A DNA stretch of 32,000 nucleotides from Candidatus Auribacterota bacterium (GTDB taxonomy: Bacteria > Auribacterota > UBA6266), in assembly GCA_023136205.1 (NCBI GenBank), contig JAGLRQ010000042.1, positions 1-32,000 of the forward strand, in the 5' to 3' direction. The position numbers were made by a program, and so were the translations under genes. This document shows positions 8,277-29,428 of this stretch, in pieces (positions within the stretch are counted from its first letter, which is position 1; each line of letters opens with the position of its first letter). A model generated the notes under the pieces. It searched no databases, was not told the DNA's origin, and saw only the letters and a program-made list of their open reading frames with translations.

Positions 8277-10028
8277 ATGAAAATTAAAGTCGCGTATTTA
8301 TCAGGTTTTTGCATGGGGGTAAGAAGAGCCGTAAACATGGTTTATTCCCTGGCAAAAACTAACGCTGGAAAAAAAATATATACTTACGGCCCTCTGATTC
8401 ACAACCCCAAGGTACTTGAAAATCTTGATAAAAAAGGAATATCCAGCATCGGAGCTCCGGAAGAAGCAGACAAAAACAGTATTATAGTAATAAGGGCCCA
8501 CGGAGTACCGCCGCAGGTAGGGAAGGATTTAGCTGCCAGCGGCGCGGAAATATGTAATGCGACATGCCCTGATGTAATGAAGGTTCAAGGGCTTATCAAA
8601 AAATACGCGGGGAAAGATTACCTGGTGGTCATTGTAGGTGACAAGGGACACGCCGAAGTAACAGGGCTCATGGGTTTTTCTAACGGCAAAGGAATCGTAA
8701 TAAGCAGTGTTGAACAAATATCAAATATCCCCGCAGGAAAAAGCGGTATTGCCGTACTGGCTCAAACAACCCAGGACACTAAGCTATACAACGATATCAC
8801 AGCAAAAATCCTGGTAAAATTCCCGGATGCAAAAATATTCAATACTATCTGTAAATCTACATTAAAAAGGCAGAAGGAAACCACCAGGCTGGCAAAAGAG
8901 GTTAACGCTATGATTGTTCTCGGCGGAAAAAACAGCGCCAACACCCGGCGCCTCTTTCATATATGTAAAAACTTGTGCGCTGATACTTTTTATGTAGAAA
9001 AGGCCCGGGACCTGGATATGGATAAAATTCTAAAATATAAAAAAATCGGGATTACAGCCGGGGCTTCGACCCCTAACTGGCAGATAAAAGAACTCGTCAC
9101 TGCACTTAAAAAAAGTACTCATAAAAAACGTTTTAAAATCCTGGAAAAGATTGATGCTCTTATCTATTTTATTGTCAGGACAAACATTTTTATAGCCATA
9201 GGCGCCGGTGTTTTGTCCTATATGGCTACAAAATTTTTAAAACTTCAGAACCCTTCATTGCTGTACCCGATAATAGCGGGCTTATATGTGTTTTCCATGC
9301 ATACATTCAACAAGCTTTTTGATAAAACCCTTGGAGAACTTGAAGACTCGACAAGAATAGCTTTTTTTGATTCACATCATGAAGAGTTTAAAATACTATC
9401 AATAACCGCAATGGCATGCGCGATAATTGCTTCATTGCTGCTGGGGTTTCCGGCTTTCTTAATAACGCTCATTGCTTCGGTTGCCGGAATTTCTTACAGC
9501 ACAAAGTTTTTCCCAAAAAACTGGCCCATAAGAAGATTAAAGGACATACAGATGTCTAAAGATTTATTCGTCAGCCTGGCCTGGACATCGGTCACTGTAT
9601 TTCTCCCGCTTCTCGGATATAAGGGAGTATCTCCGCACCCGATACCGCTGTTTCTTATTATATTTACTTTCCTTTATATTTTCATGCTTGTTTTTATAAG
9701 ATGTTTAACTTACGACCTCCTGGAAATCCATGCCGACAGGATGGTTGGAAGAGAATCGCTGGTCGTGTGCAAAGGAAAATCATTTACAAAAAGGACTATG
9801 GTATATCTTACAACCATAACAGCTATAATGGTGTTCGCCGCGGCGGCCTATAATTTAATACCGGGTTTCGGGTACTTTCTGCCGCTGCTTTCTCTTTATT
9901 CACTGCTGTACCTGGCGCTTTATCACAAAAGGCATTTCTCGCAGGAAATTACGTTTGACCTGATGGTCGATGGAAAATTTATAATAGGCGGAATCATAAT
10001 CTATCTCTGGACATCATTTGCCGGATAA
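8277..10028 (+). CDS. ispH: 4-hydroxy-3-methylbut-2-enyl diphosphate reductase (IspH/LytB) fused to a C-terminal polytopic UbiA-like membrane domain
   Basis: The N-terminal ~285 aa carry IspH hallmarks (GFCMGVRRAV, IHNPKV, RAHGVPP, ATCPDV, GHAEV, AQTTQ, NTICKST, GGKNSANTRRL, GITAGASTP). The C-terminal ~295 aa have about 8 TM helices and the motif YDLLEIHADRMVGRESLVV, which aligns with the second Asp-rich motif of UbiA prenyltransferases. Confidence 0.85.
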   Translation: MKIKVAYLSGFCMGVRRAVNMVYSLAKTNAGKKIYTYGPLIHNPKVLENLDKKGISSIGAPEEADKNSIIVIRAHGVPPQVGKDLAASGAEICNATCPDVMKVQGLIKKYAGKDYLVVIVGDKGHAEVTGLMGFSNGKGIVISSVEQISNIPAGKSGIAVLAQTTQDTKLYNDITAKILVKFPDAKIFNTICKSTLKRQKETTRLAKEVNAMIVLGGKNSANTRRLFHICKNLCADTFYVEKARDLDMDKILKYKKIGITAGASTPNWQIKELVTALKKSTHKKRFKILEKIDALIYFIVRTNIFIAIGAGVLSYMATKFLKLQNPSLLYPIIAGLYVFSMHTFNKLFDKTLGELEDSTRIAFFDSHHEEFKILSITAMACAIIASLLLGFPAFLITLIASVAGISYSTKFFPKNWPIRRLKDIQMSKDLFVSLAWTSVTVFLPLLGYKGVSPHPIPLFLIIFTFLYIFMLVFIRCLTYDLLEIHADRMVGRESLVVCKGKSFTKRTMVYLTTITAIMVFAAAAYNLIPGFGYFLPLLSLYSLLYLALYHKRHFSQEITFDLMVDGKFIIGGIIIYLWTSFAG

Positions 10029-26850: not shown

Positions 26851-27425
26851 GAAAAACTCTAATCTCTCTTTTTTTAATCTTTGCCGCCTCCTGTTTTTTT
26901 AATCCGGCATACAGTTCCGAAATAGTAGACAGTGAGAAAATTAAAGCTGTGTCATGCTGGATTTATGAATACAAAGGGGCAGAGATAATCGTCTCCTTTT
27001 TCAAACATGAAGACATAAAAGACATTGAAAATAAATGGGCCAAATTAACAAAATCTGAGATAACAATAGGAATGATTTTCATCAATAATATAGGTGGCAG
27101 AAAAAAGGTCATCTTCGACACACAATACGGGGGAGTCAACATTCGAACCTTCTCAGGCGGCGCGCATGTAACCTACGACGCAAGGGCTACTGCCAAATGG
27201 CTTTTCGGAGAGGAATATGAATCAAAATTTTCAGCCGTAACCGTTCTTCCCGGAAAAACCGACAGAAGGCTTATAATGTTCTATGGTTCGGTTAACCCAA
27301 TGGATATTGAATCCGTGGGACTCTGTTTCGGTGGGAAATCCACCTGGAACATGCTAAGATCCAAAAAAGATAAAAAATACAAGGCTATGTCCTACATAAG
27401 CCCGGACAAAATTCTAAACGACTAA
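26847..27425 (+). CDS. Secreted hypothetical protein
   Basis: Its start overlaps the upstream stop in an ATGA overlap. It has a signal peptide ([18 protein letters not shown]). I recognise no family. Confidence 0.55.
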
Positions 27426-27559
27426 TATTTCGCGCAGTGTAATTCTGAACTCCCGGTATCTTAAAACGCCGTATATAAGGGCTAAAACCTTCCATATTTG
27501 ACGCTCTAAGCCACACAAAGAGAGAACTTCGACCATAAATTTCATTGGTTGGTATTTTT

Positions 27560-27605
27560 TTATCAACAACACTTATCAACAGTTTTTCCACACAAGATAT
27601 CCACA
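27560..27605 (+). promoter_or_regulatory. Cluster of four same-orientation DnaA-box-like 9-mers
   Basis: The boxes are TTATCAACA (27560), TTATCAACA (27573), TTTTCCACA (27584) and ATATCCACA (27597). Each matches TTATCCACA at 8 of 9 positions, and starts are spaced 13, 11 and 13 bp apart. Confidence 0.4.
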
Positions 27606-27670
27606 ACTTCTTAACTGTCGATGTCACAATATGTTATGTATGTTTTTCCAGGGGTTTTTAAATAAGCCTA

Positions 27671-27698
27671 AGTTTACATAATATATATTATCGGACGT
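27671..27698 (-). other. dif: dif, the XerC/XerD chromosome dimer resolution site
   Basis: The reverse complement reads ACGTCCGATAA-TATATA-TTATGTAAACT. As I recall it, B. subtilis dif is ACTTCCTAGAA-TATATA-TTATGTAAACT, which gives 25 of 28 matches with an identical central region and XerD arm. The XerD arm also matches E. coli dif at 9 of 11. The site sits at the point where plus-strand and minus-strand gene blocks converge. Confidence 0.75.
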
Positions 27699-28165
27699 TG
27701 TAAAAATAGAATAACCTACACCAAAAAAGTTCTCCAATTGAAAATACATCCTACAAGGTATGACTACCCTTCATCTATTTTTACAACATCCGATAATATC
27801 AGAGGTTTATAAGACGTTCTTGCGAACATCCCATAAACCTCTGACGAATCTGAATTGTAGAATAACCGACACCCAAAAACCTCTCCAATTAAAGAATTAC
27901 ATCCTAAGGTTGGCCTTATAAGGCTCATACTCATCTATTTTTACAACATCCGATAATATCACAGGTTTATAAGACGTTCTTACGAACATCCCATAAACCT
28001 CTAACTGAAACTCGGACGTTGCAAAAATAGAATAACCTGAACCCAAAAACCTCTAACGAAAAGGGTCATTTTTTAATAAACATACTTAAACATCCCTATA
28101 AGCTTTTTCATCCCATATAATAAAAAAGAGATTATATGACGTTTTTGCAAACATCTTATAATCCC
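27685..28165. repeat. Tandem array (~160-bp period, ~2.3 copies plus one diverged copy) of hairpin modules starting inside the dif XerC arm
   Basis: A 26-bp inverted repeat pairs 27685-27710 with 27774-27799, with one mismatch. Segment 27774-27843 repeats at 27934-28003 with 67 of 70 identical. The left-arm sequence recurs at 28012-28037. A diverged copy of the second hairpin lies at 28128-28165. Confidence 0.85.
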
Positions 28166-28181
28166 TTGCTTATAATTTACA

Positions 28182-28211
28182 TTGACAGCGCAAAATGGAT
28201 TTTCTTAATGT
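28182..28211 (+). promoter_or_regulatory. Candidate sigma-70 promoter reading into the GC-rich island
   Basis: TTGACA (28182-28187), an 18-nt spacer, then TAATGT (28206-28211). A possible stop signal follows downstream: CGGCGCG (28258-28264) pairs with CGCGCCG (28300-28306), then TTTTTT (28307-28312). Confidence 0.3.
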
Positions 28212-28333
28212 AACTGTGGTGCTTCGCGCCTATCCTTATCGCTGCGTCTATCCTGCTCGGCGCGCCGCTGCTCACCTTTGCTACGCCTATCTTTGCCCTC
28301 GCGCCGTTTTTTCTCGTTTAGCCGGTCTTCCAT
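28205..28333 (-). CDS. Candidate 42-aa arginine-rich small protein (MEDRLNEKKRREGKDRRSKGEQRRAEQDRRSDKDRREAPQLH)
   Basis: I translated this by hand. The ATG is preceded by GAAGGGGGG 4 nt upstream. It has a repeated DRR(S) motif. It lies 66 nt downstream of the GGDEF gene on the same strand and is below the length cutoff of the ORF track. Confidence 0.3.
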   Translation of the reverse strand: MEDRLNEKKRREGKDRRSKGEQRRAEQDRRSDKDRREAPQLH

Positions 28334-28399
28334 ACCGCCCCCCTTCTATACCGCCATGTTATCATTTAAGGCAGAATTTTAAAATAATATTTTATACGA

Positions 28400-29428
28400 T
28401 TAATCACAGATAATAACTCTATTTCTACCAGTGCTTTTCGCTTTATATAATGCCTCATCGGACTTTTTTATTAACGTATCTAACTCTTTTTTAACATCTG
28501 TCTCAATCACTCCTTTTGCAACGCCAATACTAATCGTCACCGGTAAATCTCCCTTGGTTCCTGTCTCTACCAGCTTACATATCTTTTCAGCTATTTTCTT
28601 TAAAAAACCTACGTCAACAGGGGCAAGAAAAATTAAAAATTCTTCCCCGCCATATCTTCCAATTACATCGGAACTCCTTATATTTCTTTTAATAAGGCCG
28701 GCAACCTGCTGCAGAACTTTATCACCTTTTTGATGGCCGTAGGTATCGTTGATCTCTTTAAAGTGATCAATATCCATCATCATAATCCCAATATTATACC
28801 TGTGCCTTTTTGCCAGGGTTGATAAAAGGTTAATAGCATTGAAAAGCCCCCTTCTATTGAGGACATTGGTCAGAGTATCAATAGTAGTTTGCATTGTTAA
28901 CAACTTGCTGTCATGCCATAATCTTTTGATGGTTTTTCCAAGAAGCTCCAATTCCGAAGTTACCATACCGTATTTCTTTAAAGCATCAATAACCTTTTGG
29001 ATGTGATTTTCATAGTCGTCTTTAGGCTTGCTTTCCTCCGGCAATGTTCTCATAAAGTGAAATAACAATACAAACGCGGGATGCAGTAAATAAAACTCTA
29101 AGCTGTATGCTAAAAGGAAACTATTCGTATGGCCAACCATATTTTCACATTCTTTTAATAAAAGATTGCTTTCGGCATCTATTGTTTCAAGCTCATCTTT
29201 GACCTTAACCGGATCATCAAAAACCTGAGGAATCATGCCTTTTTCCGCGAAGTACAACATTTCCCTCCAGTATTCAACAGGAAATTTCTCTCCTAATGAC
29301 ATCTCCTTCCAAAAATCTCTTAGATTGTTATCTTTTTCAACCTTTGATAATTTTTCATAAATTTTATAGGATTTTCGGTCTATTGATAAACACAGGCTAA
29401 TTATATCCAGTAAAAGATTCTCTGCCAT
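28400..29428 (-). CDS. Diguanylate cyclase (GGEEF) with an N-terminal ~170-aa helical domain of unknown function
   Basis: The C-terminal GGDEF domain has DIDHFKEINDTYGH and an active-site RYGGEEF, preceded by an RSSD I-site. The N-terminal domain is helical with ferritin-like spacing (FWKEMSLGEKFPVEYW) but lacks obvious metal ligands. Confidence 0.85.
   Translation of the reverse strand: MAENLLLDIISLCLSIDRKSYKIYEKLSKVEKDNNLRDFWKEMSLGEKFPVEYWREMLYFAEKGMIPQVFDDPVKVKDELETIDAESNLLLKECENMVGHTNSFLLAYSLEFYLLHPAFVLLFHFMRTLPEESKPKDDYENHIQKVIDALKKYGMVTSELELLGKTIKRLWHDSKLLTMQTTIDTLTNVLNRRGLFNAINLLSTLAKRHRYNIGIMMMDIDHFKEINDTYGHQKGDKVLQQVAGLIKRNIRSSDVIGRYGGEEFLIFLAPVDVGFLKKIAEKICKLVETGTKGDLPVTISIGVAKGVIETDVKKELDTLIKKSDEALYKAKSTGRNRVIICD

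Follow-up and report, generated by a model that had tools for sequence, protein, structure and literature searches.

Why should the replication terminus of an uncultured bacterium carry a run of hairpins built from one half of its own dif site? The question is raised by 32,000 nucleotides from Candidatus Auribacterota ("Aureabacteria"; assembly GCA_023136205.1, contig JAGLRQ010000042.1, positions 1 to 32,000; hereafter the window). The host is represented by a metagenome-assembled genome (MAG), and its phylum has been placed in the Planctomycetes-Verrucomicrobia-Chlamydiae (PVC) group. On the XerC side of dif lies an array of ~160-bp modules. Judged by its anatomy and by comparison with relatives, the array is best explained as a lineage-specific set of non-coding, hairpin-forming pseudo-dif modules, and it resembles a pared-down version of elements known to hijack Xer recombinases. 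An initial annotation of the window had proposed a reading akin to the integrative mobile elements exploiting Xer (IMEX). The sequence features that it described are largely confirmed and recur throughout the lineage. This Xer-linked reading holds up on the sequence evidence, and the interpretation as a whole is partly supported.

Results

Modules of XerC half-sites adjoin dif

The window contains a single 28-mer of the Firmicute dif type (Table 1). Its reverse complement matches the dif site of B. subtilis, ACTTCCTAGAATATATATTATGTAAACT (PMC3025954), at 25 of 28 positions, with the XerD arm and the central region identical, and on this ground we accept it as dif. The cumulative GC skew reaches its maximum at ~27 kb and declines afterwards, plus-strand genes end at 27425, and minus-strand genes begin at 28400. 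The skew peak and the strand switch point to the replication terminus. With this location, the B. subtilis match and conservation in relatives (below), the identification of dif made in the initial annotation stands.

On the XerC side, dif is followed by ~2.5 modules of ~160 bp and then by a related hairpin, H3. The repetition begins within dif itself. A 26-nt inverted repeat (27685-27710 against 27774-27799; arms 63 nt apart and 96% complementary, with a single C-A mismatch at 27696/27788) starts at the fourth nucleotide of the central region, 3 nt inside it on the XerC side. The repeat places an inverted copy of the XerC arm, ACATCCGATAA, 87 bp from the XerC arm of dif, exactly as the initial annotation had it. 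A second, identical right arm is present at 27934-27959. The ~160-bp periodicity claimed earlier is likewise real: a direct repeat of 75 nt (27771-27845 and 27931-28005) is 96% identical with a period of 160. No open reading frame (ORF) occurs within 27699-28127, and the 32-kb window contains no phage, recombinase, integrase or transposase gene.

A module is composed of an inverted pseudo-dif, a short capped hairpin of two XerC-like arms, and an outer XerC arm with a copy of the dif flank that pairs with the inverted arm. In the pseudo-dif, the XerC arm is perfect, the 3 nt on the XerC side of the central region match those of dif, and the arm at the XerD position is degenerate. In the first module, IRr1 and 27800-27817 together read ACATCCGATAA-TATCAGAGGT-TTATAAGACGT. 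The XerD-position arm TTATAAGACGT matches the XerD arm of dif at 6 of 11 positions, and its counterpart in the relative L055, TTATGGACATT, at 8 of 11. The module spacers are 10 and 12 bp. Outside dif, the sites of the window have spacers of 8-12 bp and no XerD-like arm, and the 6-bp spacing is found only in dif itself and in the arms of the long L055 hairpin, Hb.

Each module can fold in two ways, either with the preceding A unit across M or with the following A unit. IRr2 and A3 form a composite hairpin (27934-28031), whose outer stem of 20 bp is separated by a 9x11-nt internal loop from the inner stem, H2. The three short hairpins described by the initial annotation were recovered at 27799-27844, 27959-28004 and 28128-28165, with plus-strand loops TTGC, TTAC and TTGC, which read GCAA, GUAA and GCAA on the minus strand. 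The statement that every stem mismatch is C-A did not hold, since H3 has a T-T and the extended H2 stem a C-C mismatch.

Table 1. Features of the dif locus in the window (strand: +, plus; -, minus;., no strand assigned)
Feature	Positions	Strand	Description
dif	27671-27698	+	AGTTTACATAA-TATATA-TTATCGGACGT; Firmicute-type 28-mer, unique in the window
XerD arm of dif	27671-27681		AGTTTACATAA
Central region of dif	27682-27687		TATATA
XerC arm of dif	27688-27698		TTATCGGACGT
IRl, left inverted-repeat arm	27685-27710	.	Last 3 nt of central region, XerC arm and 12 nt of flank (TGTAAAAATAGA)
A1 unit	27691-27733	+	Outer XerC arm and flank; begins TCGGACGTTGYAAAAATAGAATAACC; orthologous to L055 dif flank
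M1	27711-27773	+	63 nt between the inverted arms; contains degenerate half-site ACATCCTACAA
IRr1, right inverted-repeat arm	27774-27799	.	Inverted XerC arm ACATCCGATAA (27786-27796), then TAT of central region
H1, Ha-type hairpin	27799-27844	.	21-bp stem, plus-strand loop TTGC; arms TTATAAGACGT and ACATCCCATAA
A2 unit	27842-27884	+	Degenerate A copy; 63% identity to A1
M2	27885-27933	+	Homologous to L055 stretch between A and Hb (GGTTGG..TTATA..AGG.TCATA)
IRr2	27934-27959	.	Second inverted XerC arm (27946-27956) and flank
H2, Ha-type hairpin	27959-28004	.	Core stem 27963-27979 / 27984-28000; plus-strand loop TTAC
A3 unit	28012-28054	+	TCGGACGT and flank; 86% identical to A1; pairs with IRr2
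H3, Ha-type hairpin	28117-28165	-	Stem 28128-28144 / 28149-28165; minus-strand loop GCAA; then TTTTTTATTAT (28127-28117)
42-aa ORF	28205-28333	-	Arg/Asp-rich (MEDRLNEKKRREGKDRRSKGEQRRAEQDRRSDKDRREAPQLH), three (K/Q)DRR repeats; context, outside the array

The clustering of half-sites is far beyond chance. Ten XerC-arm-like 11-mers (TTATNNGAYGT and close variants) occur in the window where 0.87 are expected, and nine of them fall within the 475 bp of 27688-28161, which bears out the earlier claim that the modules reuse half-sites. Four members of the 20-mer family are present, against 0.01 expected. The region 27671-28180 is also strongly folded in comparison with shuffled sequence, and more so on the minus strand. 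Folded as DNA, it gives -84 kcal/mol on the minus and -63 kcal/mol on the plus strand (z-scores -12.9 and -8.1); folded as RNA, the values are -189.5 and -116.6 kcal/mol (z-scores -14.0 and -9.3).

The array is conserved at dif and varies in copy number

Orthologous loci were retrieved through the flanking proteins, using the synteny LepA, S26 signal peptidase, GGDEF, array, dif. Four further species-level genomes were obtained, so that the comparison covers five; in two of them, L054 and L056, the contig ends inside the array (relatives are given by locus number). The lineage is sparsely sampled, as the S26 signal peptidase beside the locus has just two relatives above 50% identity, both at 58-59%. 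Identical or near-identical contigs of the window's own species are present in the MAGs GCA_030639325.1 and GCA_023139245.1 and in two metagenome assemblies. A homologue search with a 192-aa neighbour, aimed at the dif-side contigs of L054 and L056, returned only 2 clusters and no new locus.

XerC-arm palindromes are present at the orthologous locus in all five species-level genomes. In the three whose contigs reach dif (the window, L055 and L047), an inverted pseudo-dif lies 55-100 bp from dif; its XerC arm is perfect or nearly so, and its XerD-position arm is degenerate. The inverted arm is spaced by 87 bp in the window, ~95 bp in L055 and ~55 bp in L047. That each of these genomes carries an inverted pseudo-dif follows from the homologies in the L055-window alignment. 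The modules are linked to dif in every relative whose contig reaches it, a linkage that the initial annotation had marked for checking.

The number of copies differs, from one hairpin up to arrays of at least 2.5 units, and their presence is patchy. L055, which is the same as L001 (LepA 96%), has an identical dif 28-mer, an A unit, a spacer, one long hairpin Hb (GGTCATAATTCTAGTTATCGGACGTTTTCCAAACATCCGATAACTAGAATTATGGAC) and H3. L056 (LepA 93%) has an inverted arm, a Ha-type hairpin and H3. L054 (LepA 75% and S26 peptidase 59% identical to those of the window) holds at least 2.5 units of 165 nt, each made of the inverted arm ACATCCGATAATAT, a Ha hairpin, an A unit and a Hb hairpin; in successive units the first 127 nt are identical. 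In L047 (with L048 and L051; S26 peptidase 58%), dif carries two substitutions and one Hb hairpin comes after it. The window, L056 and L054 share the 14-mer ACATCCGATAATAT without a difference. Within the window's intergenic region, no non-coding DNA other than IRr-Ha aligns to the L054 contig by BLAST, and IRr-Ha does so at ~80%.

Alignment with L055 shows how the window's array is composed. A1-M1 is the best alignment of the L055 A-M stretch, with the first 28 nt identical, and A3 runs on into a tail common to L055. The right half of the L055 Hb hairpin, ACATCCGATAA-CTAGAA-TTATGGACATT, corresponds by homology to the inverted arm of the window together with the left half of H2, ACATCCGATAA-TATCACAGGT-TTATAAGACGT; IRr1 is homologous to the same Hb half. 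The window therefore amounts to an L055-like locus with ~320 bp, or two modules, added between dif and the A3 flank. At strain level, the window and L003 differ by nine substitutions and two indels, all within 27660-27770, where they lie in A1, M1 and one position just upstream of dif; the other ~860 bp of the intergenic region are identical. One of these changes (TGT to TGC) makes A1 resemble A3 and suggests gene conversion. Two contigs of the window's species break inside the array or inside dif.

No half-site cluster was found away from the dif locus in the ~79 kb sampled from the five genomes (the 32-kb window and ~47 kb from four relatives), a partial sample of each genome. The A/IR 20-mer has one match in 185,579 representative genomes, at the orthologous dif locus of a related MAG, a scan that says nothing on the dispersal of the Ha and Hb hairpins. 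The dispersed copies that would have argued against the initial annotation were thus not seen in these two samples.

A separate conserved feature lies just upstream of dif. At 27550-27610 on the plus strand is a cluster of DnaA-box-like 9-mers, TTATCAACA (twice), TTTTCCACA and ATATCCACA, which sits at the terminus and not at the origin. It is present at orthologous positions in L055/L001 and L047, and the stretch is 72% identical between the window and L047 over 141 nt.

Hairpin stems covary around a fixed half-site

Covariation was assessed in seven Ha-type hairpins from four species, a small and related sample, aligned on the minus strand. Pairs were counted in the Ha family, as the MAFFT alignment of Hb was too poor for counting. 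Compensatory change is seen in 6 of 18 pairs, and 94.4% of cells are paired. None of 500 shuffles reaches this covariation, and slid registers pair only 40-57%. The initial annotation had read five compensatory pairs from the first and third copies. The ungapped comparison of H1 with H3 yields three, and it is the covariation of the stem across species that stands. Because the sequences are few and related, the result supports a maintained hairpin and stops short of proof of selection.

The conserved columns of the alignment are the half-site sequence itself. Within it, one position is always a wobble or mismatch, with ACGT on one arm and ACAT on the other, in the Ha family, the large inverted repeat and Hb. 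The polarity of this wobble is reversed in the Hb hairpins of L047 and L054. A fixed half-site within a covarying outer stem is the pattern that would be expected for a site recognised by both structure and sequence, of which folded recombination sites are known examples. A hairpin with the same ACGT/ATGT wobble position, GGGGCGAAGCATTATTCGATGTTTCGCGAAACGTCGAATAATGCTTCGCCC, also occurs in an unrelated metagenome contig (L017, 12073-12123). It apparently adjoins a transfer RNA gene on a contig without a dif-like site, and is probably a coincidence.

Related sequences in other collections

Scans of viral contigs with the hairpin pattern and the IRr-Ha pattern gave chance or coding matches only. 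BLAST against phages and plasmids found nothing but dif-like sites of Firmicute replicons, which were the only plasmid-database matches. A degenerate hairpin pattern hit 31 loci in a metagenome scan, in which the lineage is not represented; all 31 are unrelated and none has dif. No described element of this form was found in the literature and databases searched, in agreement with the initial annotation. Readings as attC sites, a CRISPR-like array or a riboswitch were rejected on anatomy.

Two kinds of viral sequence came up in these scans. A dif 23-mer retrieved small IMEX-like viral contigs of other hosts, without the modules. Contigs L009-L015 (IMG/VR contigs or stretches of ~2.6-11 kb) carry TTTACATAATATATATTATCGGA(C/A)GT, often near the contig end, and have the look of phages that exploit Xer, or of prophage junctions, in other hosts with this dif type. 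Inverted-arm patterns retrieved unrelated iteron-like clusters of TTATCGGACGT and TTATCGGACC in both orientations on large GC-rich phage contigs (L058, 5215-5450; L062, 3890-4190; L060, 10352-10440). The clustered 11-mer is identical to the window's XerC arm, and the clusters may be a binding-site array for an unknown phage protein.

H3 resembles an intrinsic terminator

The initial annotation took the minus-strand G-U pairs and GNRA loops to argue for a folded minus-strand molecule. The loops are as described in the window, but this feature does not extend across the relatives: GNRA loops are limited to the window and L055 (GCAA, GUAA, GCAA and GCGA), the Ha hairpins of L054 and L056 lack them, and polarity is reversed in the Hb hairpins of L047 and L054. 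The plus strand of the array, which is the lagging strand to the right of dif, contains 10.8% G and 22.2% C. This asymmetry is predicted by replication skew, in our judgement a simpler account than RNA. The same mutational skew would turn perfect palindromes into ones with C-A on the plus and G-T on the minus strand. A promoter and terminator scan found nothing convincing in the array and no promoter between H3 and dif, and did not call H3. Rfam gave no family at gathering score; in E-value mode it returned only sub-threshold hairpins resembling microRNA precursors. The case for a folded minus-strand RNA is therefore weak, with the exception of H3.

On the minus strand, the H3 stem (28165-28128) is followed directly by TTTTTTATTAT and lies downstream of the 42-aa ORF, the arrangement of an intrinsic terminator. 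L055 and L056 retain both the hairpin and the T-run. No U-run follows H1, H2 or the inverted repeats, which do not have this arrangement. H3, previously listed as a diverged third module copy, is indeed a Ha-type hairpin. It is best read, however, as a putative intrinsic terminator of the transcript of the 42-aa ORF and GGDEF gene, built from such a hairpin. A terminator would account for the G-U pairs and GNRA loop of H3 and, by common descent, for the same features in H1 and H2.

Discussion

Among known systems, CTXφ comes closest in geometry. It integrates through a forked hairpin of two inverted dif-like sites ~90 bp apart, on which XerC alone exchanges strands; the duplex central regions are 12 and 7 bp, and integration leaves a functional dif with non-functional dif-like sites (PMC3089051). 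In IMEX attP sites, the XerC arm and homology in the central region are typically retained, and the XerD arm diverges (PMC5357621). The array shares much of this. It is located at dif, starts inside the 28-mer, and is dif-adjacent also in L055 and L047. A stem can form between its two inverted dif-like sites, which lie ~90 bp apart; its duplex spacers, at 10-12 bp, are over-long; a G/A difference lies near the outer end of the two XerC arms; and non-functional dif-like sites adjoin a functional dif. Only the XerC arm and the XerC side of the central region show homology to dif. With identity that begins 3 nt inside the central region and a divergent XerD-position arm, the locus resembles in its geometry the end of an integrated CTXφ-type element, in line with the comparison made in the initial annotation. 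Unlike CTXφ, the array has no phage genome, replication protein or source of single-stranded circles, the unit is only ~160 nt, the dif flank itself is part of the repeat, and the host is an uncultured PVC-group bacterium.

Other systems share single traits. Integron attC sites and clusters of attC sites lacking an integrase (CALINs) are likewise arrays of imperfect palindromes with two boxes around an unpaired spacer, whose foldable strand is on the lagging-strand template. Such attC clusters are recombined as folded single strands and stacked from one double-stranded entry site by a Xer-related tyrosine recombinase. The array, by contrast, lacks RYYYAAC/GTTRRRY boxes, intI and ORF cassettes; its entry site would be dif and its recombinases XerC/XerD. 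Acinetobacter pdif modules are also short, bounded by Xer-type sites in alternating orientation, and shuffled with no dedicated recombinase, but pdif are complete XerC-6 bp-XerD sites that flank genes on plasmids, whereas the array is gene-less, lies on the chromosome at dif, and consists mostly of half-sites that are XerC-like and have 7-12 bp spacers. In Lactobacillus delbrueckii ssp. bulgaricus, inverted repeats of 38-76 kb at the terminus contain a complete dif, and a fold-back origin has been proposed (PMC5345009). The array resembles these as an inverted duplication with dif-derived sequence at the replication terminus; the repeat here is 26 bp, and the L. delbrueckii repeats duplicate the complete dif without tandem modules or hairpin families. 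H3 matches Rho-independent terminators: on the minus strand it has a stem, a GNRA loop and a U-run, and a conserved small ORF precedes it. The U-run is missing from H1, H2 and the inverted repeats, and all of them carry XerC-arm sequence.

We tentatively favour, at somewhat less than an even chance, the view that the modules are gene-less, CTXφ/attC-like folded-hairpin Xer cassettes, or the remnants of such cassettes, amplified in tandem. The 10- and 12-bp spacers, the homology confined to the XerC side and the inverted copy 87 bp away led us to this reading. XerC-mediated exchange requires homology on the XerC side of the central region. Several results count in the same direction: half-sites are clustered at this locus in five genomes, adjoining dif wherever the contig reaches it; the window is an L055-like locus with two added modules, recent duplications and varying copy number; IRr-Ha aligns at ~80% with L054 and no copy was found elsewhere in the DNA sampled; the stems covary around a fixed half-site sequence; and the strand that folds better is the lagging-strand template.

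We infer Xer binding, single-strand folding on the lagging-strand template and a recombination mechanism from these features. The modules would have been created and amplified when double-stranded dif and a hairpin site folded from single-stranded DNA exchanged one strand on the XerC side. CTXφ attP(+) uses this mechanism, and formally integron attC x attI does too. The folding strand would be the minus strand, which skew and gene strands indicate to be the lagging-strand template to the right of dif; in integron attC, the folding strand is likewise the lagging-strand template. Copy number may later have been altered by homologous or slipped recombination.

Several points weigh against the Xer-cassette reading. 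The array has neither genes nor a source of single-stranded circles, copies that are free or ectopic were not found, and nothing related to the modules turned up in the viral, phage and plasmid collections searched. The A units repeat native chromosomal flank, which simple insertion does not predict and which local tandem duplication fits equally. The A3 junction, AAAC-TCGGACGT, is not a clean hybrid site, and in the composite hairpin of IRr2 and A3 the XerC arm is paired at 8 of 11 nt. The number of modules is equal in three assemblies of the window's own species. The comparison itself comprises only five genomes, two of which end inside the array.

The array could belong to the host instead, as a cis-acting element that controls Xer and FtsK at the terminus. 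It might serve as a decoy or reservoir for XerC (and weakly XerD), present an outward XerD-like face that halts FtsK from the XerC side, or occupy the IMEX site. Retention of the inverted pseudo-dif in three deeply diverged genomes, the identical 14-mer in the window, L056 and L054, and the lack of any mobile-element gene in the window or ectopic copy would fit such a role, and FtsK behaviour at degenerate sites governs IMEX excision (PMC5357621). We nevertheless think it unlikely, because regulatory layouts are usually stabler than this architecture, which ranges from one hairpin in L047 to arrays in the window and L054 with differing hairpin types, and because duplex binding sites need no stem covariation outside the half-sites. 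No accessory array of this kind is known for a chromosomal dif. Less probable again is a neutral by-product of breakage and repair at the terminus, in which fold-back or template-switch duplications yield palindromes kept by quasi-palindrome correction. The A units and inverted arms do copy the native dif flank, fold-back synthesis has a proposed precedent in the dif-containing large inverted repeats of L. delbrueckii, template switching can imitate covariation, and the strand asymmetry fits replication skew. This model is weakened by the ~80% identity of IRr-Ha alone to L054, from which neighbouring non-coding DNA has diverged beyond alignment and in which even LepA and the S26 peptidase are only 75% and 59% identical. 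The same wobble position is moreover retained, in either polarity, in four independent hairpin families, and the repeat boundary falls exactly in the central region of dif.

To a structured minus-strand RNA we give only a slim chance. It could be a small RNA, or a 3' untranslated region or read-through element downstream of the GGDEF and 42-aa genes, and G-U pairs and GNRA loops would lend stability to its hairpins. The much deeper minus-strand RNA fold (z -14), the covariation with 94% pairing of the Ha family on that strand, the GNRA loops of the window and L055, and the U-run after H3, plausibly a real terminator, would all suit it. Yet the array has no promoter from H3 to dif, no U-run at H1 or H2 and no Rfam family, the loops and Hb polarity fail in L047, L054 and L056, and skew predicts the asymmetry. 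An RNA would also leave the 11/11 identity to the XerC arm and the anchoring at dif unexplained. Very improbable, finally, is a generic dispersed repeat that lies beside dif by chance, such as a repetitive extragenic palindrome (REP) or bacterial interspersed mosaic element (BIME), a miniature inverted-repeat transposable element (MITE), or a MITE derived from a dif-targeting insertion sequence. Like REPs, the modules are short, imperfectly palindromic and fixed in their mismatches; the array interrupts contigs; and some insertion sequences are known to target dif on its XerC side (PMC10132070). Against this, no further copy occurs in the window or in the ~47 kb from four relatives, the single A/IR 20-mer match in representative genomes is at dif, there are no target-site duplications and no transposase, and the supposed terminal repeats include the XerC arm itself.

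If the modules are Xer cassettes, a gene-less hairpin living only at dif would set a lower size limit for Xer-exploiting elements; those known, whether phage, island or plasmid module, carry genes. The range of single-strand hairpin recombination, at present CTXφ and integrons, would extend to the chromosome terminus of an uncultured PVC-group phylum. A bolder form of the idea, possible but fairly unlikely in our estimate, is that in this lineage XerCD and dif act as an integron-like platform. Gene-less hairpin cassettes of ~160 nt, the smallest mobile elements to exploit Xer, would then fold on the lagging-strand template into a CTXφ/attC-like site, enter dif or multiply there in tandem by strand exchange through XerC only, and persist throughout the phylum on the host's dimer-resolution machinery alone. 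An array that instead serves the host would give the first description of accessory architecture at a chromosomal dif site. On the practical side, arrays of this sort interrupt assemblies exactly at dif and might be mis-annotated by gene callers or RNA finders.

Neighbouring genes

The 42-aa ORF downstream of the GGDEF genes is called as a gene in several assemblies, and its indels between species, in three species, are multiples of 3. It has no Pfam match. On the plus strand, its DNA looks like a GC-rich triple repeat, CGCCTATCC. Plus-strand coding of 28190-28400 was rejected on account of a 2-nt indel relative to L001 and of the conserved ORF on the minus strand. Elsewhere in the window, a single plus-strand ORF at 8277-10028 contains both a LytB/IspH domain and a UbiA prenyltransferase domain, and apparently encodes a fusion protein.

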